Shown: positions 783 to 51,879, counted from the first letter of the stretch. The stretch is DNA of 64,000 nt from an uncultured Pseudomonadota bacterium (GCA_949283075.1 CASDRH010000038.1:44483-108482); one strand, 5' to 3'. The notes: generated by a model from the sequence alone, not told the origin. Translations and numbers: made by a program.

Positions 783-801
783 AAAAGTAAGGATTAGTTT
801 T

Positions 802-26179: not shown

Positions 26180-26433
26180 TTGCAAAAGGTATAAAAAATT
26201 TTATAATACGGATTGGGTTATTTGATATGACCTGAGGTTTGATAGCCTCCATACGAAGTGCCGGCCAGCGCAATGCTGGAAGGTGGTAAAATAAATCATT
26301 AACACAGATTTTTATCTGTGCTCTTGGTGGTGAATATACCACACTATCTCTTCGTATAGCTATCAACTTCCAGTCTGTGAACTGAAAGATGGTTCATTGA
26401 TTCGTTTAATAAAAAACAAGGAAGGAAAGAGCT
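26180..26433 (+). promoter_or_regulatory. Sigma70 promoter (TTGCAA 26180-26185, 16 nt, TATAAT 26202-26207) plus conserved ~220-nt structured 5' leader (copy A) of the cysteine-rich protein cassette
   Basis: The promoter and leader are conserved in all four leader copies in the window. The leader contains CCAGC-loop-GCTGG, GCTGGAAGGTGGTAAAATAA, a variable hairpin, GGTGGTGAATATACCACACTATCT, and AACTTCCAGC, which is complementary to GCTGGAAG. Confidence 0.6.
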
Positions 26434-26979
26434 ATGGAAAATAAGAAAAATAGAAAAGTAAAATTATTTTTATTAGAAATGATTGTTTTAGGAGTTTTTA
26501 ATTTTGTTGGAATAGAGCATGTATTTGCTCAAGATAAAAAAGAAACGCATATAACTATAAAAAAAGGATTAAATGATGAATTCCTTATTTTAAGTGGTAA
26601 TGGTCCAGATGTGGAAGTTTATGAATGCGTTGAAAAGGTATGTGTTGAGACTCAATATTGGTGTGACCCTGGTGTTATTAATTATACTTTAAAAGTTGAT
26701 AGTAGAGTTTGTGGAAATGGAGGAAAAGGAGATCATCCTCAACATGTAAATCTATATCCTGAGGATAATTGTCAGGCTAAAAAAGCGGTACATGTTTTTT
26801 GGAATTATAAAAAAGCTGATTGTGATTGGACAGATGAAGTATTTGGATCTCCGGATTATAAGAAATCGAAATGTTCTAAATATAAGTGCATAGCTTGGAA
26901 AGCTCCAGCAGATAAAGTTTTATCTTTGATGCCTCTTATTGGACAAGCAATGATTGATGTAAATTTAATTGAATATTAG
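26434..26979 (+). CDS. Cysteine-rich secreted protein, LIEY-tail family member 1
   Basis: A signal peptide is followed by about 12 Cys. The C-terminal tail is KAPADKVLSLMPLIGQAMIDVNLIEY. It is a paralog of 37172-37714, with N and C termini nearly identical and a divergent core. Confidence 0.7.
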   Translation: MENKKNRKVKLFLLEMIVLGVFNFVGIEHVFAQDKKETHITIKKGLNDEFLILSGNGPDVEVYECVEKVCVETQYWCDPGVINYTLKVDSRVCGNGGKGDHPQHVNLYPEDNCQAKKAVHVFWNYKKADCDWTDEVFGSPDYKKSKCSKYKCIAWKAPADKVLSLMPLIGQAMIDVNLIEY

Positions 26980-27064
26980 TAGGTTTACTGGTCGGTTGTT
27001 GTTAAGGTTTTGCTCACCTTTATTTTTAAGGAAGATATTTTTAAAGACTTAATAAACACAATAT

Positions 27065-27130
27065 CAGCTGGAAAGTTTGTAAGTTCATAGCACAACCTCC
27101 TTATTTCCTTTCCAGCTGGCCTTTTATTTA
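27065..27130 (+). terminator. Intrinsic terminator with a perfect 11-bp stem and a conserved loop (family copy A)
   Basis: The stem is CAGCTGGAAAG/CTTTCCAGCTG. The loop is tttgTAAGttcataGCACAACCTCCTTAtttc. A T-run follows. Confidence 0.6.
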
Positions 27131-27167
27131 TCTTAATTTAATCTTTTCTAATTTTCTTAAACACTAC

Positions 27168-27467
27168 TTGCAAAAAAATAAAAAAAATCTATAATACGAA
27201 GCAAGTCATTAAAAATTAATGGCCCGAAGGCGTAGAAACCTTTATACAGTAGTAGCCGACCAGCGCAATGCTGGAAGGTGATAAAATAAAAACCAACGTC
27301 TTTGAAAGTGCATTTTTTGCATTTTTATAGGTATCGGGTAATATATCACGCTATCTTCTACTGTATAGTTTCTAACTTCCAGCTGTGAAGTTAAGAAAAG
27401 TAATTTTTTGTTTTTGCTTTTTTTGTTTCTCGGCTTTTGTGAATTTTTATAAGGGAAGGAAAAAGCT
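27168..27467 (+). promoter_or_regulatory. Promoter (TTGCAA 27168-27173, 16 nt, TATAAT 27190-27195) plus conserved structured 5' leader (copy B)
   Basis: The CCGACCAGCGCAATGCTGGAAGGTG...AACTTCCAGC architecture is the same as copy A, with a different central hairpin. Confidence 0.6.
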
Positions 27468-28082
27468 ATGGTAAAAAATAAAATGAATAATAAAACAAAA
27501 TTATTTTTATTTGAGGTGTTTGTTTTTAATTTTTTTTCTCTAATTGGAATTGATTTGGCATTTTCTGAAGAATTAAGTACAAAAGCAGTTTTAAAAAGAG
27601 AGGGACAAAATTTAGTTTTATCTGCAAATAATAAAAATTATAAGTTAAGTTGTAAAACTCCAGGTTGTATTGTTTATAAGTGTGCTCAGTATGGATGTAA
27701 GGATGGAAAACATTATATATCTGGGGAAACATCAGGGGTTAATACAAAATTTACTGCTGAATTTTATGGCTGTAATAATGTAGACAATAAGGTTGTTTGC
27801 TCATTTAGGCCAGGAGCTGTTGGTGGGTGTGGGGATCAAGGTACTCATTGGAAAACAATGGAAAATGGAAATTGTTCAACAGAGTCATTTACTTATTTTG
27901 CTGGTCATCCTATTACGTTTTGTAATAATGGATGGATTAGATTTACTGCTACTCCTTTTTGTGTTCGAACTGAATGTATGACACAGGGATGTACAGAATG
28001 GGAAATAAATGGAAAAGATTTCTTAGCATTATTTCCATCAGTTGGTATGGCTACAATAGATCCAAATAATATAGAATTTTAA
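27468..28082 (+). CDS. Cysteine-rich secreted protein, LIEY-tail family member 2
   Basis: A signal peptide and many Cys are present. The C-terminal tail is CTEWEINGKDFLALFPSVGMATIDPNNIEF. Confidence 0.65.
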   Translation: MVKNKMNNKTKLFLFEVFVFNFFSLIGIDLAFSEELSTKAVLKREGQNLVLSANNKNYKLSCKTPGCIVYKCAQYGCKDGKHYISGETSGVNTKFTAEFYGCNNVDNKVVCSFRPGAVGGCGDQGTHWKTMENGNCSTESFTYFAGHPITFCNNGWIRFTATPFCVRTECMTQGCTEWEINGKDFLALFPSVGMATIDPNNIEF

Positions 28083-28096
28083 CTTTGGAGGATGTT

Positions 28097-28852
28097 ATGA
28101 AAAAGTTTATTATATTTAATATAATATTATTGATTGGGTTGTCAGATTTATATTCAAATACATTTAATTATGATTCTGCTGATGGTAAAGATATAATGAC
28201 AGCTATTGGTGGAAAAGGAAAAAAACAGCTTAAATGTAAAAAGATTGGATGTATATCTAATGCTAATGAGAAAATTTGTGGTGGTAGAGTTTTTTTTAAT
28301 AATACTACTATGGATGGAACTTTCTGTGATAGTTATTATGGTTGTGGATATGGAGGAGATAAAAAGTGTAAGGTTAAAATTTATACTTATGTTGATACAG
28401 ATTTACCTTTATCTTTAATGGGGAAGTTAAGTAAAAAGTATAAGAAAATTGAGAAAATAGAGGTTACTGATGAAAATGGTAATCAGATTGATGAATGTAA
28501 AGTAAGAAAGTGTAGCCAAGGTAATTATAATTGCTCTAATAGTGATTATTCTAATAAAGAAAGTATTAGTGAAATTGAAATATTTAGATATGAAGATCAG
28601 TCTTTAGTCTATAACTATTATCCTACAGATGAAATATATAAAGTACATTTAACAACAGGTAATAATTGCTCTGGATATTATGTAGATTATTCTTCTTCTC
28701 CTTCAGAAAGTAGATATATTACTGCAGAAGTAATTGATTCCCCTTGTTCAAAAGAAGGTTGTATTGAATGGGAAACAGATGCTTTGGATATATTAAGTAT
28801 TATGCCAGATATTGGATTGGAGGCGATTAACACATATTTAATTGAATATTAA
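28097..28852 (+). CDS. Cysteine-rich secreted protein, LIEY-tail family member 3, co-transcribed with member 2
   Basis: A GGAGG SD lies 5 nt upstream of the ATG at 28097, and the gene starts 12 nt after the member-2 stop. The C-terminal tail is CIEWETDALDILSIMPDIGLEAINTYLIEY. Confidence 0.65.
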   Translation: MKKFIIFNIILLIGLSDLYSNTFNYDSADGKDIMTAIGGKGKKQLKCKKIGCISNANEKICGGRVFFNNTTMDGTFCDSYYGCGYGGDKKCKVKIYTYVDTDLPLSLMGKLSKKYKKIEKIEVTDENGNQIDECKVRKCSQGNYNCSNSDYSNKESISEIEIFRYEDQSLVYNYYPTDEIYKVHLTTGNNCSGYYVDYSSSPSESRYITAEVIDSPCSKEGCIEWETDALDILSIMPDIGLEAINTYLIEY

Positions 28853-28937
28853 TCAAGTTTACTGGTCGGTTTCGTTTGTGTTGGAAGCTATTACACCTTA
28901 TATAATTTATGAATATATTTTTATTGTTTCTTGATTA

Positions 28938-29003
28938 TCAGATGAGTGAGTTTTTAAGTTCATAGCACAACCTCCTTATTTCTCATTCATCTGACTTTTT
29001 TTA
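28938..29003 (+). terminator. Intrinsic terminator with a 13-bp stem (one G.U wobble) and a conserved loop (family copy B)
   Basis: The stem is TCAGATGAGTGAG/CTCATTCATCTGA. The loop is tttTAAGttcataGCACAACCTCCTTAtttct. A T-run follows. Confidence 0.6.
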
Positions 29004-29096
29004 TTTTCAATTTCTTTAATTAATATTATTTAATTTTTTTATTATTTAATTTATGGTTATTCTTATTTTATTGAAGCTTTTATGATGGATTTGGTT

Positions 29097-29138
29097 GCCG
29101 AAGAATGATTTTTTTATGCACAACCTCCATTCTTCGGC
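29097..29138 (+). other. Additional hairpin carrying the same conserved loop motif (perfect 11-bp stem GCCGAAGAATG/CATTCTTCGGC, loop containing GCACAACCTCC)
   Basis: Read from the sequence. It lies about 100 bp downstream of the copy-B terminator, before the valS 3' end. Confidence 0.5.
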
Positions 29139-29159
29139 CTTTATAGAAATTTTAAATTT

Positions 29160-31844
29160 TTAGAATTGTTTTAGAATTATTTCTAATTTTTCAATTAAAA
29201 TTATAGTTGATTGTTCTTTTAGTTTCATATCTTCTATTAAATCTTTATCTGCATTATTTATGAAACCTTCATTTGATAGTTTTGATTTTATTCCATTTAA
29301 ATATTTTGTTTTGTTTTCTAATTCTGATTTTAGCATTTCATTTACTTTTTGCCAATCAACAGAATCTATTTTTATAAAAGATATTGTCCCATCTTTTATA
29401 GGTAAATCTACACTTTGTTTGTCTGTGTTTTCACAAATATTTACTCTTCCTAAATTGCTTATCATTTTTTTAGCAATTTTGCTGTTTGATATAAATTCAT
29501 TGTTTATTTTACAATCAATTATTTGTGAAGCTAATCCTATATTTGATTTAAATGACCTTATTTGTTCTATTATTTCAAATGTATCATTTGTTAGTGTCTT
29601 ATTTGCTTTTTTATAATTTTCAAATAAAGAATCGTCTATTTCTGATGGTAAGATTGATGAAGCTATGAATTTATATTCAGTATCTCCTATTTCTTGCCAT
29701 AGATGTTCTGTTATAAATGGCATATATGGATGTAGCAATTGTAATGCTTTTTTGAAAGTATATTTTGCAATTTGTTTTGTTTGTTCTTTTTCTGATTCAT
29801 TTTCTGTATCAGTTAGAATTACTTTTAATGCTTCTATATACCAGCTACAAAAATCGCTCCATATAAATTCGTATATATACATTATTGATTCTGATAGACG
29901 ATAATCTTTTATTGCTGTATCAATTGATTTTATACATTTGTTTAATTTTTCTAAAATCCAGACGTTTATATCAGTTAAGTTATGAAAATCATTTATGATA
30001 TCGTTTTTAGATAAATCTTTTGCTTTTAATATGTCATATCTTTCTAAAAATTTTGTAGCATTATATATTTTAGTGCTGAAATCTCTCCAACCTTCAAGTT
30101 GTTTTTCATTAAACTTTACATCTGCACCTGGCTTTGTTTGAGATACTAAATAAGCTCTTAATGCATCAGCTGAATATTGCTTTATCATATCCATTGGGTC
30201 TATACCATTTCCTTTGGATTTGCTCATTTTTTGACCTTTTGAATCTCTCATTAAGCCGTGTATGAATATGTGTTTAAATGGAGGAACTTTGTTCATACAG
30301 TATGTTCCTGCCATAATCATTCTTGCTACCCAATAGAATATTATGTCGAATCCTGTGATTAAAATTGTATTTGGATAGAATTTTTTTAAATCCGGAGATT
30401 CTGTGTTTGGCCAACCTAATGTCGCAAATGGCCATAGTGCTGATGAAAACCAAGTGTCTAGGACGTTTTCATCTCTTGTCAAATCTGATTTTGATATTTC
30501 TTTACCATATTCTTTGCTTGCAGATTTTATTGCTTCTTCTTCTGATATTTCACAGAACATTTTGCCATCTGGTCCATACCATACTGGAATTTGGTGTCCC
30601 CACCATAAAGACCTTGAAATACACCAAGGTTCTATATTTTCCATAAAGTGGAAATATATATTTTCGCGATATTTTGGTATGAATTTTATGATTTCTTTTT
30701 TTACTACATCTATTGCTCCATATTTTTCAATTAGAGTTTTTGTGTCTACGAACCATTGTTCTGTCATCATTGGTTCAATGATAGTTCCTGACCTTTCTCC
30801 GTATGGGATTACTGATTTTGTTTTTTCTATTTTTTCTAATATTCCCATTTGTTCCAAATCTGATACAACAGCTTTTCTTGCATCAAATCTGTCCATTCCT
30901 TGATATTTTTCAGGTGCATTTTCGTTTAGTTTTGCATTTAAATCAAATACTGAAATCGCTTCTAGGTTATGGCGTTTTCCAACTTCATAGTCGTTGAAAT
31001 CGTGAGCAGGAGTTATTTTTACTGCTCCTGTTCCTTTTTCTGGATCTGCGTATTCATCTGCTATAATAGGAATTTCTTTATTGCTTATAGGAATAATAGC
31101 TGTCTTTCCTATTAAATGTTTAAGTTTTTCATTTTCTGGGTGTATAGCAATTGCTACGTCAACAAATATTGTTTCTGGGCGAGTCGTTGCTATAACTATG
31201 TAATCATCTTTACTATCCTTTAATGCGTATCTGATGTAGTGCATATAATGTGTTTCTTCTTTTGATTCTACTTCTAAATCTGATACTGCTGTTTGTAATC
31301 TTATGTCCCAGTTTATAAGTCTTAATCCTTTATAAATTAAACCTTCTTTATATAGATTGACGAAGAATTGTAAAACTGCTTTTGATAAGCCTTCGTCCAT
31401 AGTAAATCTTTCTCTGTCCCAATCTGGAGAAATTCCTAATGCTTTGAATTGATTTATTATCATTCCGCCAGAGTATTTTTTCCAATCCCAAACCCTTTGT
31501 AAGAATTTTTCTCTTCCTAGGTCGTATCTGGATATACCTTCTTTATCCATTTGTTTTTCTACAACCATTTGAGTCATTATTCCTGCGTGGTCAAGTCCTG
31601 CTTGCCATAAGACATTTTTACCTTTCATCCTGTTATAACGGACTAGGACATCTTGAATTGAGTTATCCATTGCGTGTCCTAAATGAGCAACTCCTGTAAC
31701 ATTTGGAGGAGGCATCATTACACAAAAATTTTCTTCTGGATTGTCTGATGCTTTTGATACATCTGTTTTGAATATTCCTGCTTTTATCCAAGCGTCATAT
31801 ATTTCTTTTTCCAATTTTTCAAAATTGAATCTGTTTTCTAGCAT
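29160..31844 (-). CDS. valS: Valine--tRNA ligase
   Basis: HIGH (PPPNVTGVAHLGHAMD) and KMSKS motifs are present. The length is 894 aa with a C-terminal coiled-coil. Confidence 0.95.
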   Translation of the reverse strand: MLENRFNFEKLEKEIYDAWIKAGIFKTDVSKASDNPEENFCVMMPPPNVTGVAHLGHAMDNSIQDVLVRYNRMKGKNVLWQAGLDHAGIMTQMVVEKQMDKEGISRYDLGREKFLQRVWDWKKYSGGMIINQFKALGISPDWDRERFTMDEGLSKAVLQFFVNLYKEGLIYKGLRLINWDIRLQTAVSDLEVESKEETHYMHYIRYALKDSKDDYIVIATTRPETIFVDVAIAIHPENEKLKHLIGKTAIIPISNKEIPIIADEYADPEKGTGAVKITPAHDFNDYEVGKRHNLEAISVFDLNAKLNENAPEKYQGMDRFDARKAVVSDLEQMGILEKIEKTKSVIPYGERSGTIIEPMMTEQWFVDTKTLIEKYGAIDVVKKEIIKFIPKYRENIYFHFMENIEPWCISRSLWWGHQIPVWYGPDGKMFCEISEEEAIKSASKEYGKEISKSDLTRDENVLDTWFSSALWPFATLGWPNTESPDLKKFYPNTILITGFDIIFYWVARMIMAGTYCMNKVPPFKHIFIHGLMRDSKGQKMSKSKGNGIDPMDMIKQYSADALRAYLVSQTKPGADVKFNEKQLEGWRDFSTKIYNATKFLERYDILKAKDLSKNDIINDFHNLTDINVWILEKLNKCIKSIDTAIKDYRLSESIMYIYEFIWSDFCSWYIEALKVILTDTENESEKEQTKQIAKYTFKKALQLLHPYMPFITEHLWQEIGDTEYKFIASSILPSEIDDSLFENYKKANKTLTNDTFEIIEQIRSFKSNIGLASQIIDCKINNEFISNSKIAKKMISNLGRVNICENTDKQSVDLPIKDGTISFIKIDSVDWQKVNEMLKSELENKTKYLNGIKSKLSNEGFINNADKDLIEDMKLKEQSTIILIEKLEIILKQF

Positions 31845-31941
31845 TATTTTATCCGTTTTTTTATGATGAAATTCTTATTATTTTTGTATTATTAAAGAAT
31901 ATATAAAAGAATTTAAAATACAAGTGAAATATTGTTTTTAA

Positions 31942-32010
31942 AAGGCCAGCTGGAAAGGAAATAAGGAGGTTGTGCTATGAACTTACAAACTTTCCAGCTG
32001 ATATTGTGTT
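31942..32010 (-). terminator. Intrinsic terminator of family member 4; reverse-complement copy, nearly identical to copy A
   Basis: The reverse complement of 31940-32040 matches 27030-27125 almost base for base. Confidence 0.55.
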
Positions 32011-32052
32011 TATTAAGTCTTTAAAAATATCTTCCTTAAAAATAAAGTTTTT

Positions 32053-32580
32053 TTAGTATTCAATTAAGTTTGGGTCTACACGAGAGATACCAATTTCTGG
32101 CATAGCTTTTAATATGTCCATTACATCAAGTTCAATGTATTCAACTTCTCTGTTATTAAAATGATTTGGGTCGCTACTTGTGCTATACATTACACTTCCA
32201 TCAGAAAATTTATGTTCGTATACATCTTTATTTGTGCAATCACTCCATTCTCTTCCATCTATTGTTGATCCTAATTTTGTATACTTTCCACAGAATACTA
32301 TGTTTTGCCAACCTCTATTAGATGATGGGGGATTAATAGAATCATTGAAATTTAGTAGATTTCTACAATTTGAAGTATCAGTAGTACAAAATTTTGTAAC
32401 AGATACTGCTTTACCTTTGCTATATCTTAATTTAATTTTTTGTGATTGTTCTTGAGCTTTAATGTATTGATTACTTGATAAGCATAGAATTGCAATAAAC
32501 ATAAAAGTGATTTTTGCAATTTTGCTTTGTAATTTATTTTCTTTAAAAATACTTGTTTTTTTATTTACTATTTTTTCCAT
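32053..32580 (-). CDS. Cysteine-rich secreted protein, LIEY-tail family member 4
   Basis: A signal peptide is present. The C-terminal tail is VEYIELDVMDILKAMPEIGISRVDPNLIEY. Cys are distributed through the core. Confidence 0.65.
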   Translation of the reverse strand: MEKIVNKKTSIFKENKLQSKIAKITFMFIAILCLSSNQYIKAQEQSQKIKLRYSKGKAVSVTKFCTTDTSNCRNLLNFNDSINPPSSNRGWQNIVFCGKYTKLGSTIDGREWSDCTNKDVYEHKFSDGSVMYSTSSDPNHFNNREVEYIELDVMDILKAMPEIGISRVDPNLIEY

Positions 32581-32834
32581 AGCTTTTTCCTTCCTTGTTT
32601 TTTAGTTTAACAAAAACTGACTACTTTCTTTCAGCAATCAGCTGGAAGTTGAGAACTATGTAAGCTTTATAGTGTGGCATATTCACCACCAAAGGCGCCG
32701 GTTTTCCAGCGTTAATGACTTATTTTACCACCTTCCAGCAATTTATAGCTGGTCGGCTTGCTTACTAAGGCTCTCACACCTCGGGTCGTATTTCGACTTA
32801 GTTTTTATTATAGTTTTTTTTATATCTTTTGCAA
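32581..32834 (-). promoter_or_regulatory. Promoter (TTGCAA 32829-32834 and TATAAT 32807-32812 on the minus strand, 16-nt spacer) plus conserved structured 5' leader (copy D)
   Basis: The reverse complement contains CCGACCAGCtataaattGCTGGAAGGTGGTAAAATAAGTCATTAAC...GGTGGTGAATATGCCACACTAT...AACTTCCAGCTG. Confidence 0.6.
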
Positions 32835-32971
32835 TAATGTTTTTGTTTGCTTTTTATTAGTTTCCTTTTGATATTTATTAAATTGTATTTTTTCTATTTT
32901 TATTATATTGACTTTTGGATATTGTCTATTATAAAATTTTGTCAATTATTTTATTGTAATAATATTTTTAA

Positions 32972-33228
32972 GGAGTTTGTGATGACTGATAGAATTTTAA
33001 AGAAATTATTTAGGGGTAAAAAGATAGATATTTTGGATATATCATATCTTTTTAAGTCTTTTTAAGAGTGGTATTTATATTGATACTAAATATGGTAAAG
33101 CTGTAATTGTTTATCCCGGTATGAAATACTACAATGGGATTGATACAATTATAATACCAGAAAAAGGTGTGATAGTTGAAAGTAGCAACGGAGATATTTA
33201 TAAATATATTTCTGAAAGTAATTTATAA
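32972..33228 (+). pseudogene. Possible frameshifted small gene: two adjacent short reading frames joined across a T-run near 33058-33063
   Basis: Frame 0 reads MTDRILKKLFRGKKIDILDISYLFKSF and stops at 33065. The +1 frame continues as SGIYIDTKYGKAVIVYPGMKYYNGIDTIIIPEKGVIVESSNGDIYKYISESNL and stops at 33228. A T5 run lies at the junction. Confidence 0.2.
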
Positions 33229-33245
33229 AATTTTTGCTTTTAATT

Positions 33246-33288
33246 AAAATAACGCAACTTTTATTTTTGAGTTGCGTTATTTTTTTAT
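33246..33288. terminator. Bidirectional intrinsic terminator
   Basis: The perfect 10-bp stem TAACGCAACT/AGTTGCGTTA is flanked by an A-run upstream and a T-run downstream. It lies between convergent genes. Confidence 0.6.
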
Positions 33289-33310
33289 CTAATTATCAAA
33301 AATTAAATAA

Positions 33311-33760
33311 TTATTCGTTTTCTTCTTTTGCTTTTATTGATGGAGCCTCTTTTTGTTTTATGTTTTTTATTGTTCCATTTATTACCCCACCTTTTTCTAT
33401 AACTAAATTATGGTAAAATAATTTTCCTTTAATATTTCCTGTTGCATAAACATATAATGTCCCTGTTACTGTTAAAGAACCATCAAATTCTCCGCTTATA
33501 TGTGCTTCTTCAACAATTGCTTCTCCGGTGAATAATCCTCCGTTTATTATATCTAATGCTCTTGCATCTTTTATGTTTGCGTTTAATTGGCCTTCTATTA
33601 CTAAGCTGTCGCATACATCAATATCACCAGATATTTTTATGTTTTTTCCTATTACTAATTGCTTTCCATCGTTTTTATTAATTACTGTATGTGTTTGGCT
33701 GTAATTAAATACTGGTGTTTGCATAATTCCAGGTTTTTTATAATCGTTTAGTTTTGACAT
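33311..33760 (-). CDS. Bactofilin-family cytoskeletal protein
   Basis: The protein is 149 aa with beta-helical repeats, such as ISGDIDVCDSLVIEGQLNANI and ISGEFDGSLTVTGTLYVYATGNIKGK, typical of the bactofilin DUF583 domain. Confidence 0.6.
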   Translation of the reverse strand: MSKLNDYKKPGIMQTPVFNYSQTHTVINKNDGKQLVIGKNIKISGDIDVCDSLVIEGQLNANIKDARALDIINGGLFTGEAIVEEAHISGEFDGSLTVTGTLYVYATGNIKGKLFYHNLVIEKGGVINGTIKNIKQKEAPSIKAKEENE

Positions 33761-34090
33761 AATTCCGTTCCTCTTCAGTTCATTAGTTTTATCTTTTATA
33801 TGGTATGGAATTTATTAAAAAAAGCAAGTATGAATTTAATATAACCCTTTATTTATTATATCTTGTAATTTATTCAGAAATCTGGATATATGAAATCCAT
33901 CGCATACTGTGTGATGCACTTATATTGATATAGGTATAAATATTTTCCTATTTTCTTCTGTGTATTTTCCTATTGTAGATATTTGAAGTAAGTAATCATA
34001 TCCTTTTTTATGTTAAGATTAAATACTTAAAAAGTTATCCAAGGTATTATTGATACATTAAATATGTTTTTGGTGTTTGTGGATTTGATA

Positions 34091-34441
34091 TTATATCTTT
34101 ACTGTTTTTATTCTATATATTTTTGAATGTTTCTGTTTCGGAATTAAAATATGTATATAAAGGTCTAATTTATCGTATATTCTAACGATTCCTTTTGTAT
34201 TTGTAGCGATTCTAAATTCTTTGTGTGAATTTACTAATTTTCTTATTAAAAATATTATTGTTTGTGATATTTTTAAATTTAACTCTTTTATTTTTGTTAT
34301 ATCGATTTTAGTGTATATGCTATACATGCAAGGGATATTTTGTGTAAAATGTTTGTAGTAAATATTTCTTTCCCAATTATTTAAATTTATTGCTTTAAAT
34401 ATTAGGATTTCCTTTGTTTTTTTATAAAAATATTTTTGCAT
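34091..34441 (-). CDS. Hypothetical protein, possibly a gene remnant
   Basis: ORF only. It is flanked by long AT-rich non-coding stretches. Confidence 0.25.
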   Translation of the reverse strand: MQKYFYKKTKEILIFKAINLNNWERNIYYKHFTQNIPCMYSIYTKIDITKIKELNLKISQTIIFLIRKLVNSHKEFRIATNTKGIVRIYDKLDLYIHILIPKQKHSKIYRIKTVKI

Positions 34442-34670
34442 TTTTTATTGTTATTTATGTTTTTTGTAAAGTATTATTTGATATTTATTTTTGCTTATAT
34501 TTTTTATTTATTTTTTGATTTGTTTTGTCAATTCTTTTTGTCAAAAAATGCTTGCGGTGATTTTTAATTTTTTGTATAATTCGTCTTATCTGGTTTTTAC
34601 TCAGAATTGTTAAAAGGAATTTTCCATAACATTTTTTGCGTTGGAAAGGGAATATAAAAAGGAAGGAAAA

Positions 34671-35417
34671 ATGAAAAAAGAAAATAATAAAAACTTATCT
34701 AAAAATAATAATGTAACAAATAAGGCTCAGGTTGCTTATTTCTTGTGGTTAGAAAAAGGTTGTCCAGAGAGTATGGAAGAAGCTGTTTATATGTCAGTTG
34801 CTGATCGTCAATGTCCAGCTGGCGTTGATAAAGCAATATGGGATAACGCAAAAGCTAGATTAGCAAAACGTGTTTATGAAATAGCTAATATTAAAAAAGC
34901 TGTTGCTAATGAAGATAAAGTTGAAACTTTGAAATCTGATGTTTCAGTTGATAAAAAAGCAGAAGTTAAGAAACCAGAAGCAAAGAAAGTTGTAAAAGCT
35001 GTTAAAAAAGCAAAAGCAGTTGCTAAAAAGGTTGAAAAGAAAGTTGAAGCTAAAAAAGCTGAAATTAAAGCTGTTGTAAAAGCAGAAGTTAAGAAACCAG
35101 AAGCAAAGAAAGTTGTAAAAGCTGTTAAAAAAGCAAAAGCAGTTGCTAAAAAGGTTGAAAAGAAAGTTGAAGCTAAAAAAGCTGAAGTAAAGAAGATTGC
35201 TGAAAAAGCTAAAGCTCCAGTTATTTCTATTGTTAAAAAAGAAGAAGTAAAAAAAGCTGTTAAATCTGTTAAAGCTAAATCCTCTTCATCTAAACCAGCG
35301 AAGAAAATCGTTAATAAGGTGAAGAAAAATGATCCGCTTACAGAAGCTTTGAATAAAGCAGAAAGCAAAATTGTTTCTATTACAAATCATAATTTGAAGA
35401 AAGTTGTAAATAAATAA
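34671..35417 (+). CDS. Histone H1-like Lys/Ala-rich repeat protein
   Basis: An AAGGAAGG SD precedes the ATG at 34671. The C-terminal two thirds is AKKVEKKVEAKKAE-type repeats. Confidence 0.55.
   Translation: MKKENNKNLSKNNNVTNKAQVAYFLWLEKGCPESMEEAVYMSVADRQCPAGVDKAIWDNAKARLAKRVYEIANIKKAVANEDKVETLKSDVSVDKKAEVKKPEAKKVVKAVKKAKAVAKKVEKKVEAKKAEIKAVVKAEVKKPEAKKVVKAVKKAKAVAKKVEKKVEAKKAEVKKIAEKAKAPVISIVKKEEVKKAVKSVKAKSSSSKPAKKIVNKVKKNDPLTEALNKAESKIVSITNHNLKKVVNK
34959..35204 (+). repeat. Perfect tandem duplication with a 123-nt (41-aa) period, of which about 105 nt are identical, inside the histone-like gene
   Basis: gcagaagttaagaaaccagaagcaaagaaagttgtaaaagctgttaaaaaagcaaaagcagttgctaaaaaggttgaaaagaaagttgaagctaaaaaagctgaa occurs twice, at 34959 and 35082. 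Confidence 0.85.
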
Positions 35418-35440
35418 TTTGTTTTAGAATTTGAATTTTA

Positions 35441-35470
35441 GCTGGATCGAAAGGTCCAGTTTTTTATTTT
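35441..35470 (+). terminator. Intrinsic terminator after the histone-like gene
   Basis: The stem CTGGA-tcgaaagg-TCCAG is followed by a T-run. Confidence 0.5.
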
Positions 35471-35539
35471 TATTTATTGATTATTTTTTATGTTAGCTAT
35501 ATAAAATAAAAGTAATTTAACCGATGAAAGAGGTGTCTT

Positions 35540-36832
35540 ATGTTAGATATAAAATTTATACGTGAAAATGTTGATATTGTTAAAAATGCTATAAAGGTTA
35601 AAGGGGTATCTTGTGATTTGGATGCTTTATTAAAACTTGATGAAAAAATTATTGCTAATAAAACTGAAGTTCAAGGTTATCAAGAAAAAGTTAATGCTTT
35701 GTCAAAGCAAATTCCTGTTGCTTCTGATGATGATAAAAAGAAAATGGTGGAAGAATCTAAAAATTATGGGGATAAAATTAAAGCTTTAGAAAAAGAAATA
35801 GAACCTGATTTAAAAAAATACAATGCTTTGTTGATGAGTGTTCCTCAAATTCCTGATCCTTCTGTTCCTGTTGGGGCTGATGATTCTGAAAATGTTGTTA
35901 TTAAAACTAATGGTGAAATAACAAAATTCGATTTCCAACCTAGAGATCAGATGGAATTAACAGAACTTAATGATTGGGTTGATTTTGACCACATAGCAAA
36001 AGTATCTGGGGCAAGAATTTATGCTTTGAAAGGAGAACTTGCTCGTTTGGAAGTTGCTTTACATATGTATGTTTTAGATAAACTTGCTAAAAAAGGTTTC
36101 CGTCAGATTAGTTGTCCTTCACTTTGCAAAATTGATGCTTTATTTCAAGCTGGGCATTTCGTAGGTGATGATCCGTCTGTTATGGATAATGATGTTTATA
36201 AAATTGAGAAGGATGAGCTTTGTTTAGCTGGAACTTCTGAAATTATTATAAATGCTTTGCATCAAGGTGAAATCTTAAATGAAGATGATTTACCTGTTTT
36301 ATATGCTGGTTATTCTCCTTGTTTCAGAAGGGAAGCTGGGGCTGCTGGTAAAGATACTCGTGGTTTAGTTCGTGTTCATCAATTTATGAAGGTTGAAGAA
36401 TTTGTTATTTGTAAAAATGATATTGAAGAATCTAAAAAATGGCATCAGGTTTTACAAAATTCTATGGAAGAATTATGTGCAGATATGAATATACCTTGCC
36501 ACGTTTTAGAAGCTTGTACAGGTGATATGGGATTTAATAAAATATATATGACTGATGTTGAAGCTTGGGTTCCTTCACAAAATAAATATCGTGAGGTTTC
36601 TTCAACTTCTACTATTGGAGATTTCCAAGCTCGTAGAACAAAGTTAAGATATCGTGAAAATGCTACTGGTAAAGTGCAATATTGCCATACTTTAAATAGT
36701 ACTGGTGTTGCTACTCCTAGGTTTTTAGTTGCTTTTATTGAAAATAATCAGAATGCTGATGGTTCTGTTAATATTCCTGAAAAGCTACGTCCTTATATGG
36801 GAGGAGTTGAAAAAATCGGTGGTAAAAAATAA
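35540..36832 (+). CDS. serS: Serine--tRNA ligase
   Basis: An N-terminal coiled-coil arm and class II core motifs are present. The length is 430 aa. Confidence 0.9.
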   Translation: MLDIKFIRENVDIVKNAIKVKGVSCDLDALLKLDEKIIANKTEVQGYQEKVNALSKQIPVASDDDKKKMVEESKNYGDKIKALEKEIEPDLKKYNALLMSVPQIPDPSVPVGADDSENVVIKTNGEITKFDFQPRDQMELTELNDWVDFDHIAKVSGARIYALKGELARLEVALHMYVLDKLAKKGFRQISCPSLCKIDALFQAGHFVGDDPSVMDNDVYKIEKDELCLAGTSEIIINALHQGEILNEDDLPVLYAGYSPCFRREAGAAGKDTRGLVRVHQFMKVEEFVICKNDIEESKKWHQVLQNSMEELCADMNIPCHVLEACTGDMGFNKIYMTDVEAWVPSQNKYREVSSTSTIGDFQARRTKLRYRENATGKVQYCHTLNSTGVATPRFLVAFIENNQNADGSVNIPEKLRPYMGGVEKIGGKK

Positions 36833-36858
36833 TTATTTTTTCAAATCTTTTATCTTTA

Positions 36859-36890
36859 AAAGCTGGTGTTTATTATCAGCTTTTTTTTAT
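36859..36890 (+). terminator. Intrinsic terminator after serS
   Basis: The stem AAGCTG-gtgtttattat-CAGCTT is followed by T8. Confidence 0.55.
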
Positions 36891-36905
36891 TACTTTTATT
36901 TATCA

Positions 36906-37171
36906 TTGCAAAATTATCATAAAAAACTATAATTGTTTTTTGATTGGGGGATAAACCAATCAGAGGTGTCAGAGCCTTTACATCAAGTAACCGACCGGCG
37001 ATTTGCTGGAAGGTGGTAAAATAAGTCATTTGTCGTGCTGTCTTTCAGTGCGCGTCTTTTGTGGCGAATATGCCACACTATCTCTTGATGTATAGTTCTG
37101 AACTTCCAGCTGTTAGCTGAAAGGTTGATGGCGTTTTTTGTTAATTAAATAAAAAATAGGGAGTGTGAGCT
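36906..37171 (+). promoter_or_regulatory. Promoter (TTGCAA 36906-36911, 16 nt, TATAAT 36928-36933) plus conserved structured 5' leader (copy C)
   Basis: CCGACCgGCGatttGCTGGAAGGTGGTAAAATAAGTCATT...GtGGcGAATATGCCACACTATCTCTT...AACTTCCAGCTG is present. Confidence 0.6.
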
Positions 37172-37714
37172 ATGGAAAATAAAAAGAATAGAAAAGTAAA
37201 AATATTTTTATTTGGAGTGTTTATTTTAGGAGTTTGTAATTTTGTTGGATTAGAGCAAGGTATTGCTCAAGATAAAAAAGAAACGCATATTACTATAAAA
37301 AAAGGTTTAAATGATGATTTTATTATTTTAAGTGGTAATGGTCCGGATGTGAGAATTGCTGAATGTGCTGAAAAGGTATGTGTTCAGATGAGTTATTGGT
37401 GTGATCCGGGTAGTGTTGGATATATTCATGATGTGAATAGTGATGTTTGTGGAAATGGTGGAAGAGGGAAACATCATAAAACAGCATATTTAGATTATAA
37501 TAGTAATTGTCAAGCTAGAGTAAGAACTAAAACTAGTTATAAAACTTGGGAAGGTTGTTATGATTTATATTCAATAGTTGGCTCGCCATCTTATAAGAGA
37601 TCTGGATGTTCTAAATATAGATGTATAGCATGGAAAGCTCCAGCAGATAAGGTTTTATCTTTGATGCCTCTTATTGGACAATCAATGATTGATGTTAATT
37701 TAATTGAATATTAG
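37172..37714 (+). CDS. Cysteine-rich secreted protein, LIEY-tail family member 5 (close paralog of member 1)
   Basis: The N-terminal 50 aa and C-terminal 30 aa are nearly identical to member 1, and the core is divergent. Confidence 0.7.
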   Translation: MENKKNRKVKIFLFGVFILGVCNFVGLEQGIAQDKKETHITIKKGLNDDFIILSGNGPDVRIAECAEKVCVQMSYWCDPGSVGYIHDVNSDVCGNGGRGKHHKTAYLDYNSNCQARVRTKTSYKTWEGCYDLYSIVGSPSYKRSGCSKYRCIAWKAPADKVLSLMPLIGQSMIDVNLIEY

Positions 37715-37773
37715 TAAATTTTTTGGTCGGTTTCCTGCTTAAATTTATGTGTCTATTTTTATGGTTTTGAATG

Positions 37774-37826
37774 ACGACTTGTGAGTAATTTTTGCACAAC
37801 CTCTTATTCACAGGTCGATTTTTTTA
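37774..37826 (+). terminator. Intrinsic terminator with a 14-bp stem (two G.U/U.G wobbles) and a conserved loop (family copy C)
   Basis: The stem is CGACTTGTGAGTAA/TTATTCACAGGTCG. The loop is tttttGCACAACCTC. T7 follows. Confidence 0.55.
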
Positions 37827-37828
37827 TT

Positions 37829-51300: not shown

Positions 51301-51879
51301 GCTGAAATTATTCCTCCGTTTGTTGGTAATTTGTGTTATGAGGAAAATTATAGTTCTTATATAACTGATAAAGATATTATGAATAATAATAAAGTTGATT
51401 GGTTATTAAATTTAACTGATGATATTTGGTTTAGAGATTCTGTTTTGCCTTATCAACATTTTGATGCTTCTTATTTGCGTGCTGTTGAAGAGGGATTGCC
51501 TTATGTCAGAGTTTCAAATGATGGACCTACTGCTGTTTTAGATGCTTATGGGCGTTTGGTTGAGGGTAATGCTAAACTTATGGAGTTTGCTTCTGATGGA
51601 AAATGGCATAAAATATCAGATGAGAAAAGAAATAAATTGGATTATTCAGAAATTGGTGTTTTGGATGTAAAACTTCCTTTGCCTCCTGAACATAGGACTT
51701 TATATTCAAAAACTGGAGATGTTTTGATTAAATATATTTTAATATCTGGTTTGATTATAGTTTTATTGATAGATTTATTGATTTCTAATTACTTTAAGAA
51801 AAAATATATTCAGATATTAGATTTATTTTATAAAGTTAAATGTGGTTTTAAACAAATATTAAATGCTAGAAAGAGTTAG
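48346..51879 (+). CDS. lnt: Apolipoprotein N-acyltransferase: two complete Lnt modules fused in one 1177-aa ORF
   Basis: Module 1 (about aa 1-545) has the CN-hydrolase catalytic context YHETAF, KHRLVPFGEYIP, ICNEDNY. Module 2 (about aa 598-1177) has LAENVVPF, KKVHLAPLGEYVP, LCYEENY. Each module has its own N-terminal transmembrane bundle. Confidence 0.75.
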   Translation: MFLSLKKIYLNFINTKFGPYFMMLIFGLLASLALPPFQFYFISALGFIFAFIYINKISSKRRSVFLMMFFYFGFFILSSSWLLHSFINSFTIYIKIMGWISFLGFFFASTIYALPFFILPLFKNVFGKALGFAALFAISEWIRSFIFVGFGYNMLGSMWYDVLPIVQSAALYGVYGLTFFSVLLFLLPYVLFFYRKCLSRIIIPVLLLFSFYAFIVSWGFWRLHFAEESLREDFKVRIIQPDFPPVYKAITELIQKNTQNLRDLTTVKPLDNIDMVFYHETAFRYFISNFYEYRIKEELDGLIPEKGFFVSGMPRLEYVFNQKKQDIDKMLYNSVVGIDSNFELQTKYFKHRLVPFGEYIPQFFKMFLPSVLTAGGSFSFPEDNKNLLIFPDIVKYPSILATICNEDNYAGQLAGFDIKKNADVMLNVANLAWFGDKFVQKQNLAVGVLRAIEEGMPFVRVINNGYSSVISPYGKMISGDVVVVGHDYKTILEEKIDNHIGPFQIGIMDVKVPNRIKYTLYSMTGNYLIISSLFILVILLLLFSKKDSVCKTDFDTKSFKNCVLKNRDASNKFLFCFFQSLKEFILFKFNKNKYLFMKLFNYFVIMLFGMFMVLATPPYNLFFPAVVSIMVFYYFYSEKTDSALDIYLLSFSFFFGYFLIGSLWLTGPMRLAGVHNAFNRYALLFTFLIPFFVAFFTSLPFIFANRKNQICKLLIFAFAFALGEFIRSRSEILTGFPYIYIGAIWIPVKSVLQFASLFGIYGLAFITSLIFAFPVWLFVNFKRLSKKILLYVSAFVLMLFSFIFLWGIFRIPDKIEFNQNLNLRLVQPMKSRRLDLYDMPYLLNDFNKVIDLVNFEKDAKTNLVILAENVVPFNYASDSLLAADKDKFDLLKKITPDNSYLIMGFVGKYVNGSLFFNDATVKHYNMIAVFNSDAKMIMDYKKVHLAPLGEYVPKYLANLFPRKITAGDADIISGKVRNVLFNFEDAEIIPPFVGNLCYEENYSSYITDKDIMNNNKVDWLLNLTDDIWFRDSVLPYQHFDASYLRAVEEGLPYVRVSNDGPTAVLDAYGRLVEGNAKLMEFASDGKWHKISDEKRNKLDYSEIGVLDVKLPLPPEHRTLYSKTGDVLIKYILISGLIIVLLIDLLISNYFKKKYIQILDLFYKVKCGFKQILNARKS

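Follow-up and report, generated by a model that had tools for sequence, protein, structure and literature searches.

What joins five genes for small cysteine-rich proteins that lie scattered among the housekeeping genes of one chromosome, and how might they be expressed? They lie in a 64-kb stretch of DNA, analyzed as a whole and called the window here. A preliminary description had placed family members at 26434-26979, 27468-28082, 28097-28852, 32053-32580 (minus strand) and 37172-37714, had given every copy a promoter and a terminator of its own, and had mentioned the leader only as a part of the cassette. All five open reading frames (ORFs) were present at these coordinates. The TTGCAA-16-TATAAT promoter was found at 26180, 27168, 32834 (minus strand) and 36906, and none was found for gene 3; the claim of separate signals for each copy was dropped, as gene 3 has neither promoter nor leader and gene 2 has no terminator. 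Four cassettes, with four promoters and leaders, carry the five ORFs. Gene 3 is co-transcribed with gene 2; it starts at 28097, 14 nt past the end of gene 2, with its own GGAGG Shine-Dalgarno sequence (SD), a search with CM R1 gave no leader match ahead of it, and two terminators follow it (28938-29005 and 29097-29145). The cassettes are neighbored by housekeeping genes (ArgRS/LpxA, ValRS, SerRS, L25), synteny around them is kept in other strains, and the 64-kb window showed neither an integrase nor attC. A tblastn search with 29 family proteins gave no further family copies in the window beyond the five genes. On the best reading, one regulon comprises at least six chromosomal cassettes, and the window holds four of them. 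The features are given below.

26180..26207, plus strand: promoter of cassette 1 (TTGCAA-16-TATAAT; promoter scan)
26215..26433, plus strand: leader 1, structured 5' leader (CM R1 84 bits, alignment, covariation)
26231-26375: conserved core of leader 1, with H1, P2, b, c (GCTGGAAGG), P4/P5, P6 and d (CTTCCAG)
~26418, plus strand: SD of cassette 1, AAGGAAGG
26434..26979, plus strand: family gene 1, 181 aa, 8 mature Cys, tail ending LMPLIGQAMIDVNLIEY, identical to P0001
26989..26997, plus strand: 3'UTR motif TGGTCGGTT after gene 1, complementary to leader segment b, CCG(A/G)CCA
27065..27130, plus strand: terminator hairpin 1, 16-nt loop ending GCACAACCTCC, loop motif at 27090-27099
27168..27195, plus strand: promoter of cassette 2
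27203..27467, plus strand: leader 2, structured 5' leader, core 27223-27384, CM R1 77.4 bits
27468..28082, plus strand: family gene 2, 204 aa, 12 Cys, tail ending LFPSVGMATIDPNNIEF
28097..28852, plus strand: family gene 3, 251 aa, 12 Cys, GGAGG SD, no leader
28863..28871, plus strand: 3'UTR motif TGGTCGGTT after gene 3
28938..29005, plus strand: terminator hairpin 3a, loop motif at 28965-28974
29097..29145, plus strand: terminator hairpin 3b, the second with the same loop motif (29118-29127)
31940..32000, minus strand: terminator hairpin 4, loop motif at 31966-31975, fold z-score -2.5
32053..32580, minus strand: family gene 4, 175 aa, 4 mature Cys, tail ending AMPEIGISRVDPNLIEY, identical to P0008
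32581..32800, minus strand: leader 4, structured 5' leader, core 32640-32785, CM R1 85.2 bits
32615-32643, minus strand: terminator inside leader 4 (terminator scan)
32807..32834, minus strand: promoter of cassette 3
36906..36933, plus strand: promoter of cassette 4
36941..37171, plus strand: leader 5, structured 5' leader, core 36960-37111, CM R1 89.5 bits
37109-37132, plus strand: terminator inside leader 5 (terminator scan)
37172..37714, plus strand: family gene 5, 180 aa, 8 mature Cys, closest paralogue gene 1 (66% aa identity)
37724..37732, plus strand: 3'UTR motif TGGTCGGTT after gene 5
37775..37828, plus strand: terminator hairpin 5, loop motif at 37794-37803

The main new finding is the leader RNA, which had not been analyzed in the earlier description. 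This element of ~200-220 nt is a conserved, strongly covarying structured RNA in its own right, and it was found ahead of all eight family transcription units checked (CM R1 72-90 bits), namely the four window copies and those upstream of P0010 (L004), P0019 (L137), P0050 (L141) and P0051 (L142). It has two mutually exclusive conserved folds and is capable of forming a pseudoknot. The long-range helix was recovered by RNAalifold. In the strand-only alignment A10, 98.7% of cells were paired and compensatory changes were seen in 17 of 28 pairs, the pairing being somewhat inflated because the anchor rules used to pick out the strands allowed slight freedom in the offset and because five sequences were hand-corrected; none of 500 shuffles reached the observed pairing, and slid controls gave 37-46%. 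Fold B was scored on the CM alignment A11, with c/d and P6 absent from the CM's own structure, and had 99.1% of cells paired and 6 of 18 pairs compensatory. The unpaired nucleotides AAUA, CAC and UAG are invariant in the leader core. Leader 4 had a minimum free energy (MFE) of -69.3 kcal/mol (z-score -4.9); in this fold d and the SD form a pairing of only 5 bp, and SDs are purine-rich in any case. A terminator was placed by the scan directly after d in leaders 4 and 5, with a terminator-d overlap of only 1-3 nt, and is visible in all relatives; in leaders 1 and 2 the terminators are weak or absent.

On balance, we favor a putative regulon in which a common two-state riboregulator would control variable proteins that are secreted or lie at the surface. 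Each cassette runs from a sigma-70 promoter through a ~220-nt leader and a AAGGAAGG-type SD to one or two genes and a 3'UTR, in which TGGTCGGTT is followed by a terminator with a large loop ending in GCACAACCUCC. The structured leader would act in cis. Fold B has a sRNA-Xcc1-like core in which c (GCUGGAAG) pairs with d (CUUCCAGC), with P4/P5 bearing two AAUA loops, the hairpin P6, and the 5' part folded as hairpin H1. In fold A, the H1 loop and the next strand invade the P6 loop and the junction to give one long helix, and the upstream strand b captures c. Because the terminator and then the SD directly follow the switch, we propose that the fold adopted governs read-through, access to the SD, or both; access could be affected because d, an anti-SD-like CUUCC, is paired with the SD in the MFE fold. 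A short stable RNA would result in one case and the full mRNA in the other.

In gut and rumen Alphaproteobacteria, leader homologues precede genes for type IVb pilins and for BspA-type LRR proteins; Pfam assigned the downstream genes to Bundlin/PilS pilins, which have the class III signal, and to LRR_5. The leader therefore appears to be a device of surface-structure genes. Some relatives (L019, L032a, L124a, L132) have no downstream gene, and L032a is flanked by a gene on its upstream side and by nagB, which runs toward it. Orphan copies of this kind, without a same-strand gene (e.g. L032a), and the strong terminator after d in all relatives would suit an RNA that is mainly a trans-acting small RNA gene, with the family genes expressed by incidental read-through and the copies serving dosage or titrating an RNA-binding protein or ribosomes through GGA/GGAAGG motifs. 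The detection of sRNA-Xcc1 of Xanthomonas campestris as a ~100-nt RNA (PMC2996969) and its seven copies in Xylella (PMC12189769) are in line with such a role. We regard it as unlikely, albeit deserving of attention: the sole consensus promoter lies upstream of the RNA in 8/8 family transcription units, the distance from RNA to SD is just 40-60 nt, and leader and gene remain linked throughout the family and also, in other orders, at pilin and LRR genes. True sRNA-Xcc1, too, lies directly upstream of genes, with copies reported before symE (bioRxiv 10.1101/2025.06.18.660453) and one found here before a BRO gene.

In architecture, the leader is best read as a distant, 5'-extended relative of sRNA-Xcc1 (RF02221), alike in the 3' core but below threshold. 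L032a (L032:1289-1369), closely related to the window leaders, aligned over the full length of RF02221 at 39.7 bits (E 8.6e-6), the best score among the relatives; no window match reached the gathering threshold of 53 bits, and leaders 1-2 gave no match at E<=10. The positive control L143, a true sRNA-Xcc1, scored 72.6 bits against RF02221, and in the reciprocal search CM R1 gave true sRNA-Xcc1 only 2.7 bits. Segments complementary to the junction, P6 loop and c strand of this true sRNA-Xcc1 lie upstream of it, ordered as in the leader; judged from these strands, the locus carries a matching 5' extension that is unmodelled in Rfam. Both RNAs have a closing helix P1 (c/d), P4 flanked by AAUA-type internal loops, a P5 hairpin (short in the model), P6 and a U-rich junction, with a purine-rich 5' strand of P1 and its 3' strand after the junction, and both are multicopy within a genome, with accessory genes immediately downstream. 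In contrast to sRNA-Xcc1, c and d are fixed in the window leaders as GCUGGAAGG and CUUCCAG, and the window clade has a far longer P5. Whereas sRNA-Xcc1 resides on integron cassettes, plasmids and transposons and precedes symE and BRO, the window cassettes are chromosomal, amid housekeeping genes, and leaders of their type precede secreted variable proteins, pilins and LRR proteins. The literature, as represented by PMC2996969 and by Chen 2011 as relayed in PMC12189769, treats sRNA-Xcc1 as a trans-acting 88-nt RNA; a two-state leader of ~200 nt is proposed here.

The covarying, pseudoknot-capable and highly conserved core, with its invariant unpaired AAUA, CAC and UAG, and the terminator downstream of it also recall a metabolite or second-messenger riboswitch (e.g. 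for a cyclic dinucleotide) that controls surface-structure genes. The regulon would consist of pilins, adhesins and secreted proteins, and a PAS-GGDEF cyclase is encoded at 52945-53907. Riboswitches for c-di-GMP (GEMM-I, c-di-GMP-II) occur upstream of pilin, adhesin and flagellar genes (review PMC11477304), and are likewise structured leaders with a terminator before surface-structure genes in several copies per genome; in Rfam scans, however, they have no sequence or structure similarity to the leader, nor does any other Rfam riboswitch. Aptamer and terminator are without clear overlap, and the wider Xcc1-like class precedes unrelated genes (the symE toxin, BRO) with no coherent ligand logic. 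Such heterogeneous downstream genes (symE, BRO, pilins, LRR proteins and the present family) argue against a metabolite-specific riboswitch, which we consider distinctly unlikely.

Under the favored two-state riboregulator, the products would be Sec-exported, disulfide-bonded, beta-rich proteins with a variable core and a fixed C-terminal module, probably extracellular or surface-exposed. All five have signal-peptide-like N-termini with A/S-x-A/S-type cleavage contexts (judged by inspection), as had been claimed, and all share the C-terminal pattern C.C..W(E/K)....D.L..(M/F)P.(I/V)G...(I/V)(D/N)..(L/N)IE(Y/F), a module of ~35 aa ending (L/N)IE(Y/F). The range of 8-14 Cys given earlier fits genes 1, 2, 3 and 5 but not gene 4; the mature counts for genes 1 to 5 (8, 12, 12, 4, 8) are even throughout. 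An AF2 model placed a helix at residues 5-32 and gave the core a largely beta structure; pLDDT was ~88 over residues 80-140 and 65 overall (moderate confidence), and the tail was poorly modelled. The invariant tail would most likely serve sorting, anchoring or assembly, and it matches no known sorting signal. In ...MIDVNLIEY the terminal aromatic fits the beta-signal of outer-membrane beta-barrels (terminal aromatic and hydrophobic residues at -3, -5, -7 and -9), but with N at 5 and D at 7 from the end (Y = 1) the tail does not meet the pattern.

The absence of any Pfam, NCBIfam or fold match agrees with the earlier statement that the family could not be placed, and no homology search led to a known family of mundane function. 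The family is tiny: a set of 1.84 billion proteins contains 26 clusters of it at 50% identity. One contig fuses a member to a phage-type ART-PolyVal/PBECR3 protein; the fusion retains profile positions 1-67 of 140, with the join at a shared PYIEAD motif and at the contig end, and the same locus in another assembly is a plain 270-aa gene. This fusion is probably a chimera. It is nonetheless the kind of evidence that secreted toxins or bacteriocins would offer, with an active core and a tail for secretion or processing, and the small, Cys-rich, predicted secreted, strain-variable and multicopy proteins resemble polymorphic toxins in these respects. The analogy, drawn in the preliminary description, is given very little credence here. 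No toxin domain was found in 26/26 cluster representatives (Pfam/NCBIfam), the adjacent genes (aaRS, LpxA, SerRS, L25) include none that is immunity-like, and conservation at both ends is the reverse of polymorphic-toxin architecture.

Subunits of a fiber or surface layer, with the conserved C-terminal strand or helix making contacts to other subunits or a machine, would fit the homologous leaders that drive type IVb major pilins elsewhere, the predicted disulfide-bearing, beta-rich core (AF2) and the conserved ends with a variable middle, as in major pilins. This reading is highly unlikely. Type IV pilin identity was rejected, as no N_methyl or pilin Pfam match was obtained in the family; the class III signal (G/FxxxE; G at -1, E at +5) is absent, with no conserved G/E in the N-termini. 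No structural match to pilins was found, and no chaperone, usher or assembly genes occur in the window. A single polymer fits poorly because there are at least seven paralogues of very different length (114-272 aa).

Core variability was evident from the family alignment and from a comparison of the window with L002 from a second strain, with substitution rates by NG86. DNA identity was 98.4-99.8% for ArgRS, LpxA, ValRS and bactofilin and 98.8-100% for the leaders, against 64%, 52%, 78% and 88% for the family gene cores. Housekeeping dS was 0.011-0.075 (dN <=0.002); in the cores dS was 0.27-0.9, 5-40x the housekeeping dS, with dN 0.09-0.52 and dN/dS 0.33-0.76. Over the last 33 codons, dN/dS was 0.11-0.22 or the sequences were identical, and the C-terminal tail is under purifying selection. 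Members 1 and 5, described as nearly identical at both ends, shared 96% over the last 90 nt and only 86-91% over the first 180 nt; their cores were dissimilar as claimed (38-73% nt identity across most of the core). Collapse of repeats in assembly was ruled out, since the same loci carry different alleles in independent assemblies of several samples.

These data point to old divergent alleles recombined at conserved flanks, under relaxed or diversifying selection. Of the diversifying selection or cassette shuffling suggested earlier, the divergent cores and probable recombination at flanks stand; the values do not point to rapid in-situ positive selection, and dN/dS never exceeds 1. Relaxed constraint with recombination would yield the same dN/dS numbers. 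New cores may enter by homologous recombination, with leader/N-terminus and tail/3'UTR as arms, and phage, host immunity or competitors could uphold the polymorphism through frequency-dependent pressure. Conserved ends around a hypervariable center are shared with Anaplasma Msp2/P44, Neisseria pilin and chaperone-usher major pilins; as in Msp2/P44- and pilin-type variation, allelic divergence is far above the genome background and recombination in the flanks is plausible. The family has no pilin signal, and neither homology nor a fold match links it to these proteins. Antigenic variation by gene conversion (pilE/pilS, msp2-like) was not supported within the 64-kb window, where tblastn found no promoterless silent donor copies; in contrast to pilE/pilS-type systems, every family copy is reported as a complete expression unit (gene 3 shares that of gene 2). 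A diversity-generating retroelement target was rejected, with no reverse transcriptase (Pfam, 20 larger neighboring ORFs), no extra copy of a family gene in the window, and many indels where such an element would confine variation to adenine-templated substitutions.

Further complementarity was found in the 3'UTRs. The motif UGGUCGG is complementary to leader segment b, and the loop GCACAACCUCC(UUA) resembles the 16S anti-SD tail and is complementary to the SD and start codon region in three cassettes. Duplex energies between 5'UTR and 3'UTR were not better than those of shuffled loops (z ~ -1), and no covariation was seen. In S. aureus icaR, an anti-SD motif in the 3'UTR pairs with the SD. 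The cassettes are alike in complementarity, but gene 4 lacks the second 3'UTR motif, TGGTCGGTT, and with it UGGUCGG. The common loop motif reported for the terminators was borne out in five hairpins, all beside family genes, though gene 2 has no terminator; this motif, GCACAACCTC, had five exact occurrences vs. 1.04 expected by chance, each adjoining family genes.

The preliminary description had reported five family genes, every copy under its own TTGCAA-16-TATAAT promoter. All five open reading frames were borne out, and four such promoters were located. Gene 3 has neither promoter nor leader and begins 14 nt past gene 2, with its own GGAGG in front; the five genes are therefore carried on four cassettes, each with one promoter upstream of a leader RNA (leaders 1, 2, 4 and 5 are named after the genes that they precede).

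Promoters and family genes in the window (position, strand where minus, feature)
26180, promoter of the gene 1 cassette
26434, gene 1
27168, promoter of the gene 2–gene 3 cassette
27468, gene 2
28097, gene 3
32053, minus strand, gene 4
32834, minus strand, promoter of the gene 4 cassette
36906, promoter of the gene 5 cassette
37172, gene 5

All five products carry a signal-peptide-like segment (a basic, then hydrophobic start with an A/S-x-A/S-type cleavage context) and share the C-terminal module, in which the L, P, G, I and E positions are invariant and the end reads (L/N)IE(Y/F), both as first described. Mature cysteine counts were 8, 12, 12, 4 and 8 for genes 1–5, even in every protein; the range of 8–14 originally given holds for four members but not for member 4. 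Protein identity to gene 1 was 66% for gene 5 and 24–28% for the others, the latter in a weak overall alignment. Members 1 and 5, said to be near-identical at their ends, were 96% identical over the last 90 nt and less close (86–91%) over the first 180 nt; divergence of their cores was upheld, with 38–73% identity over most of the core. The common terminator loop motif, GCACAACCTC, was found as five exact copies against 1.04 expected, each in a terminator hairpin adjoining a family gene. A second 3'UTR motif, TGGTCGGTT, lies 8–11 nt past the stop codons of genes 1, 3 and 5. Both 3'UTR motifs are restricted to the clade of the window leaders, and L141, a related locus, keeps them together with the promoter.

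The five proteins had no match in Pfam or NCBIfam. A word-indexed profile search of 5.8 billion proteins returned 11 clusters, and an exhaustive HMMER search of 1.84 billion representatives returned 26; each of these (114–234 aa) opens with a signal-peptide-like segment and closes with the tail ...MP.IG...(I/V)DPNLIEY, on either side of a variable core that contains Cys. At least two further paralogues lie elsewhere in the same organism, a low-GC (~27%) Gram-negative with LpxA, Lnt and AsmA that is seen only in metagenome assemblies: P0010 (200 aa, contig L004) adjoins BacA and CarD, and P0019 (270 aa, contig L137) lies between ComEC and AsmA.

For strain variation, the window was compared with the syntenic contig L002. 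Assembly collapse as the source of variability was excluded by independent assemblies from other samples with the same synteny.

Window versus L002: DNA identity, and substitution rates (Nei-Gojobori)
ArgRS, LpxA, ValRS, bactofilin: identity 98.4–99.8%
Leaders covered by L002 (n = 3): identity 98.8–100%
Gene 1 core: identity 64%
Gene 2 core: identity 52%
Gene 3 core: identity 78%
Gene 4 core: identity 88%
3'UTRs: identity 70–88%
Housekeeping genes: dS 0.011–0.075, dN ≤ 0.002, dN/dS 0.0–0.08
Family gene cores: dS 0.27–0.90, dN 0.09–0.52, dN/dS 0.33–0.76
Last 33 codons: dS 0.23 where different, dN 0.01–0.05, dN/dS 0.11–0.22 where calculable, otherwise identical

With dS at 5–40 times the background, the core sequences represent alleles that diverged long ago, not recent in-situ mutations; recombination within the conserved flanks appears to have carried them from strain to strain or from locus to locus. 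The raised dN/dS of the cores shows relaxed or diversifying selection, at values never above 1. Of the diversifying selection or cassette shuffling initially proposed, recombination of old alleles and a raised dN/dS are in agreement, and a dN/dS that never exceeds 1 points away from rapid in-situ positive selection. Silent donor copies of family genes were absent from the 64-kb window, where DGR and silent-cassette mechanisms were likewise without support; since synteny on the chromosome is conserved, a reading as integron cassettes was rejected as well.

As judged from sequence, the proteins fit best as exposed and polymorphic, with a tail that would serve sorting, anchoring or assembly. This reading is based on the Sec-type signals, even Cys counts and predicted beta-rich core, on an invariant tail under purifying selection beside extreme allelic divergence, and on a leader that elsewhere precedes pilin and adhesin genes. 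Two more specific readings were rejected: an OMP beta-signal in the tail, whose residue pattern does not fit, and a type IV pilin N-terminus. Toxins or pilus subunits, and for the RNA a trans-acting sRNA, were weighed as less likely alternatives. If the preferred reading of exposed, polymorphic proteins is true, these hypervariable secreted proteins, which differ between strains and keep one invariant C-terminal tail, form a family not described before; the tail would be a candidate for a new signal in sorting or anchoring, and the proteins themselves may be targets of pressure from phage or host. On L004, an ORF cut by the contig end (16121–17215, minus strand) joins part of a phage-type polyvalent protein (a weak PBECR3 match; ART-PolyVal, E = 8.8e-16, covering only profile positions 1–67 of 140) to the C-terminal two thirds of a seventh family paralogue. 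The join falls exactly at a PYIEAD motif common to both parts, and in L137, another assembly, this locus holds an unfused gene of 270 aa. The L004 ORF could be a chimera of the metagenome assembly or a genuine recombinant; the ART-PolyVal fusion was rejected as a functional clue, being a probable chimera.

The four window leaders have invariant blocks in common. A long-range helix with compensatory changes was predicted by RNAalifold, the folding z-score of leader 4 (32581–32800, minus strand) was −4.9, and an Rfam scan gave no match in the window. Relatives were sought with the invariant block GCTGGAAGGTG in a genome scan and a better metagenome scan, followed by a model search; the genome scan pattern was loose (15 specified bases), and only ~7 of the 113 loci listed were real, the rest being mostly chance matches. 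Leader homologues were found in gut and rumen Alphaproteobacteria MAGs (RGIG3823, RGIG4773, UBA3773, two SGB bins and RUG11221) and on several metagenome contigs. The gene 3' of the leader encodes a type IVb major pilin at L030 and L007 (Pfam Bundlin/PilS) and at L121 and L032b, a leader copy on L032 (N-terminal sequence), and a BspA-type LRR protein at L020 and weakly at L037 (Pfam LRR_5); L083, a homologue of the L020 protein, had no Pfam match. Some copies, such as L032a, are without a same-strand gene. All the family transcription units examined carried a leader, distant ones from other studies among them, and R1, a covariance model made from the leader RNA, scored 72–74 bits at L137, L141 and L142. 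A literature search for a pilin-associated RNA motif found nothing relevant.

Three further observations concern these loci. The LRR proteins of L020 (7450–7540), L083 and L037 share a C-terminal tail of their own, ...YTP.EA..V....N....I.(F/Y)R(K); it bears no relation to the LIEY tail and may be a further sorting signal specific to a lineage. The P0019 leaders (L139:230–377; L137:5800–5944; L138:326–465) differ between samples in helix P2 (CTAAAGGA/TCCTTTAG vs. ATGCAGTAA/TTACTGCAT), and the L139 leader has the 5' half of one variant with the 3' half of the other, leaving P2 broken and R1 down to 55 bits; leaders may have recombined, or the short contig may be chimeric. A 6S RNA (L007:3014–3171, minus strand; 66.8 bits) lies ~1.8 kb from the leader-pilin unit of rumen MAG RUG11221.

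Order of leader segments, 5' to 3'
1, variable hairpin P0
2, hairpin H1 (GAGG...CCUC)
3, strand P2-5', then variable hairpins
4, strand b, then invariant c (GCUGGAAGG)
5, P4 (GUGNU/ANCAC) around two AAUA loops and variable P5
6, ACUAU, strand P2-3', UAG
7, junction, 6–7 nt, complementary to the H1 loop
8, d (CUUCCAGC), hairpin and U-run; SD and ATG 40–60 nt beyond

Two sets of helices are conserved in the leader and are mutually exclusive. In fold A, one long interrupted helix is made by the H1 loop and P2-5' on one side and the junction and P2-3' on the other, and b pairs with c. In fold B, H1 is closed, c pairs with d, and ACUAU/AUAGU form P6 with P2-3' as its loop. As R1 was built from sequences minus the variable region and misplaces the 5' domain in relatives with long inserts, the 5' helices were analyzed on anchor-extracted strands. 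In the resulting alignment (A10, 16 sequences, strands taken by anchor rules with five sequences fixed by hand), 98.7% of cells were paired across H1, the loop-junction helix, P2, c/d and P4, with 17 of 28 pairs compensatory; 0 of 500 shuffles reached the observed pairing, and slid controls gave 37–46%. In the model-made alignment (A11), 99.1% of cells were paired across c/d, P4 and P6 (6/18 pairs compensatory; slid controls 28–51%), c/d and P6 being absent from the model structure. By inspection, strand b was complementary to c in every sequence, in a varying register.

A terminator directly 3' of d was found by scan in leaders 4 and 5 and is evident in all relatives, and d (CUUCC) is base-paired to the SD GGAAGG in the MFE fold. 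The choice of fold may thus set transcription read-through and/or access to the SD, and the outcome would be the full mRNA or else a stable RNA of short length, like the sRNA-Xcc1 that has been detected. Under a broader and improbable reading given further on, the 3'UTR would also feed back on the 5' leader: UGGUCGG would capture b, and a loop resembling an anti-SD would act on the SD. UGGUCGG in the 3'UTR is complementary to strand b, the terminator loop CACAACCUCC is a candidate partner in such putative 5'-3' UTR cross-talk, and in 3 cassettes the 3'UTR loop has complementarity to both SD and start codon. In duplex prediction against the leader and translation start, the energies of the loop were no better than those of shuffled loops and no consistent site emerged; the UGGUCGG/b and loop/SD pairings were without statistical or phylogenetic support. 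As to the signal, the genes behind the RNAs of the wider class are mixed, which speaks against a metabolite-specific riboswitch, and the SD-like and anti-SD-like character of c, b, d and a' hints at a role for the ribosome or an RNA-binding protein. A PAS-GGDEF diguanylate cyclase is encoded in the window (52945–53907, plus strand), so c-di-GMP signalling exists in the organism and a cyclic-dinucleotide signal is possible.

The nearest known RNA was sRNA-Xcc1 (RF02221), an 88-nt RNA detected by Northern blot in X. campestris (PMC2996969). It is found on the most widespread Xanthomonas integron cassette, upstream of symE (bioRxiv 10.1101/2025.06.18.660453), and in seven copies in Xylella (PMC12189769); Chen 2011, as cited in these papers, has it acting in trans under HrpG/HrpX control. 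In a permissive Rfam scan, the c-to-d half of L032a aligned end to end with RF02221 at 39.7 bits (gathering threshold 53; E = 1e-3 over 37 kb and 8.6e-6 over 301 nt), with the same helices, AAUA loops and UUUGAG junction. A true sRNA-Xcc1 copy on a P. aeruginosa plasmid (72.6 bits) lies 38 nt upstream of a BRO-family gene, and the 120 nt in front of the RNA hold three segments ordered as in the window leaders: TAAGAAAC, CAAGCAG and CTCCCGA, complementary to its junction, second hairpin loop and c strand, respectively. A generic shuffle test for any three 7-mers was weak (67/5000), and the chance of these three specific targets being matched in order is far lower, ~1e-7 by our own rough estimate. 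The reciprocal search of true sRNA-Xcc1 with R1 failed (2.7 bits) and the window leaders do not reach RF02221, so they fall outside formal membership; what they have in common with sRNA-Xcc1 is architecture, including the unmodelled 5' extension. At L143:1380–1497 (P. aeruginosa plasmid NZ_CP093017), a terminator-like hairpin (CCGCT...AGCGG followed by TTTTTT) stands between the putative 5' extension and the core, so that one transcript may not in every case span both at true sRNA-Xcc1 loci.

The leader appears to re-scope RF02221. A much broader proposal, which we hold to be improbable but worth stating, is that the leader is the full-length form of a widespread, mis-scoped RNA class, of which the 88-nt "sRNA-Xcc1" covers no more than the 3' core: a riboregulator of ~200 nt, with two states, that would sense a signal and gate accessory and surface-variation genes across Proteobacteria, here joined to a dedicated 3'UTR that feeds back on the leader and driving a regulon of hypervariable secreted proteins with a new C-terminal sorting signal. 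If the main reading, of a variable-protein regulon under a shared two-state leader, is correct, sRNA-Xcc1, of obscure function since 2010, would be the central part of a longer leader that acts in cis and has two conserved, exclusive folds; the class would extend to Alphaproteobacteria, ahead of major pilin and adhesin genes; concrete helices would be open to test (b/c vs. c/d; P2/PK vs. P6/H1); and the window would be a compact natural case of a whole regulon from one promoter-leader-tail-3'UTR template. The interest lies in an orphan hypervariable protein family, a templated, complete expression cassette and a leader tied to an obscure Rfam family; variable secreted protein families and structured 5' leaders are both known, and the system that joins them is not categorically new.

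Other features of the window were recorded. A type I restriction-modification system (21–6150, plus strand; specificity subunit 769–1926, R subunit 3007–6150) is grouped with three large ORFs (1923–3053, 6192–7310 and 7394–9724), without Pfam match or unscanned, in a region of ~20% GC. At 34091–34441 (minus strand) lies a 116-aa ORF whose L002 counterpart matches Pfam CAT (chloramphenicol acetyltransferase); at a length far below that of a full CAT, the window ORF is probably a gene fragment. The 258-aa Lys/Ala-rich ORF at 34641–35417 (plus strand) has no Pfam match, an internal ~40-aa direct repeat (KKPEAKKVVKAVKKAKAVAKKVEKKVEAKKAE) and a composition like that of a histone H1-like or nucleoid protein. 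The 1177-aa ORF at 48346–51879 (plus strand) contains LNT_N and CN_hydrolase stretches, two of each, and looks like an apolipoprotein N-acyltransferase that was fused or duplicated in tandem.
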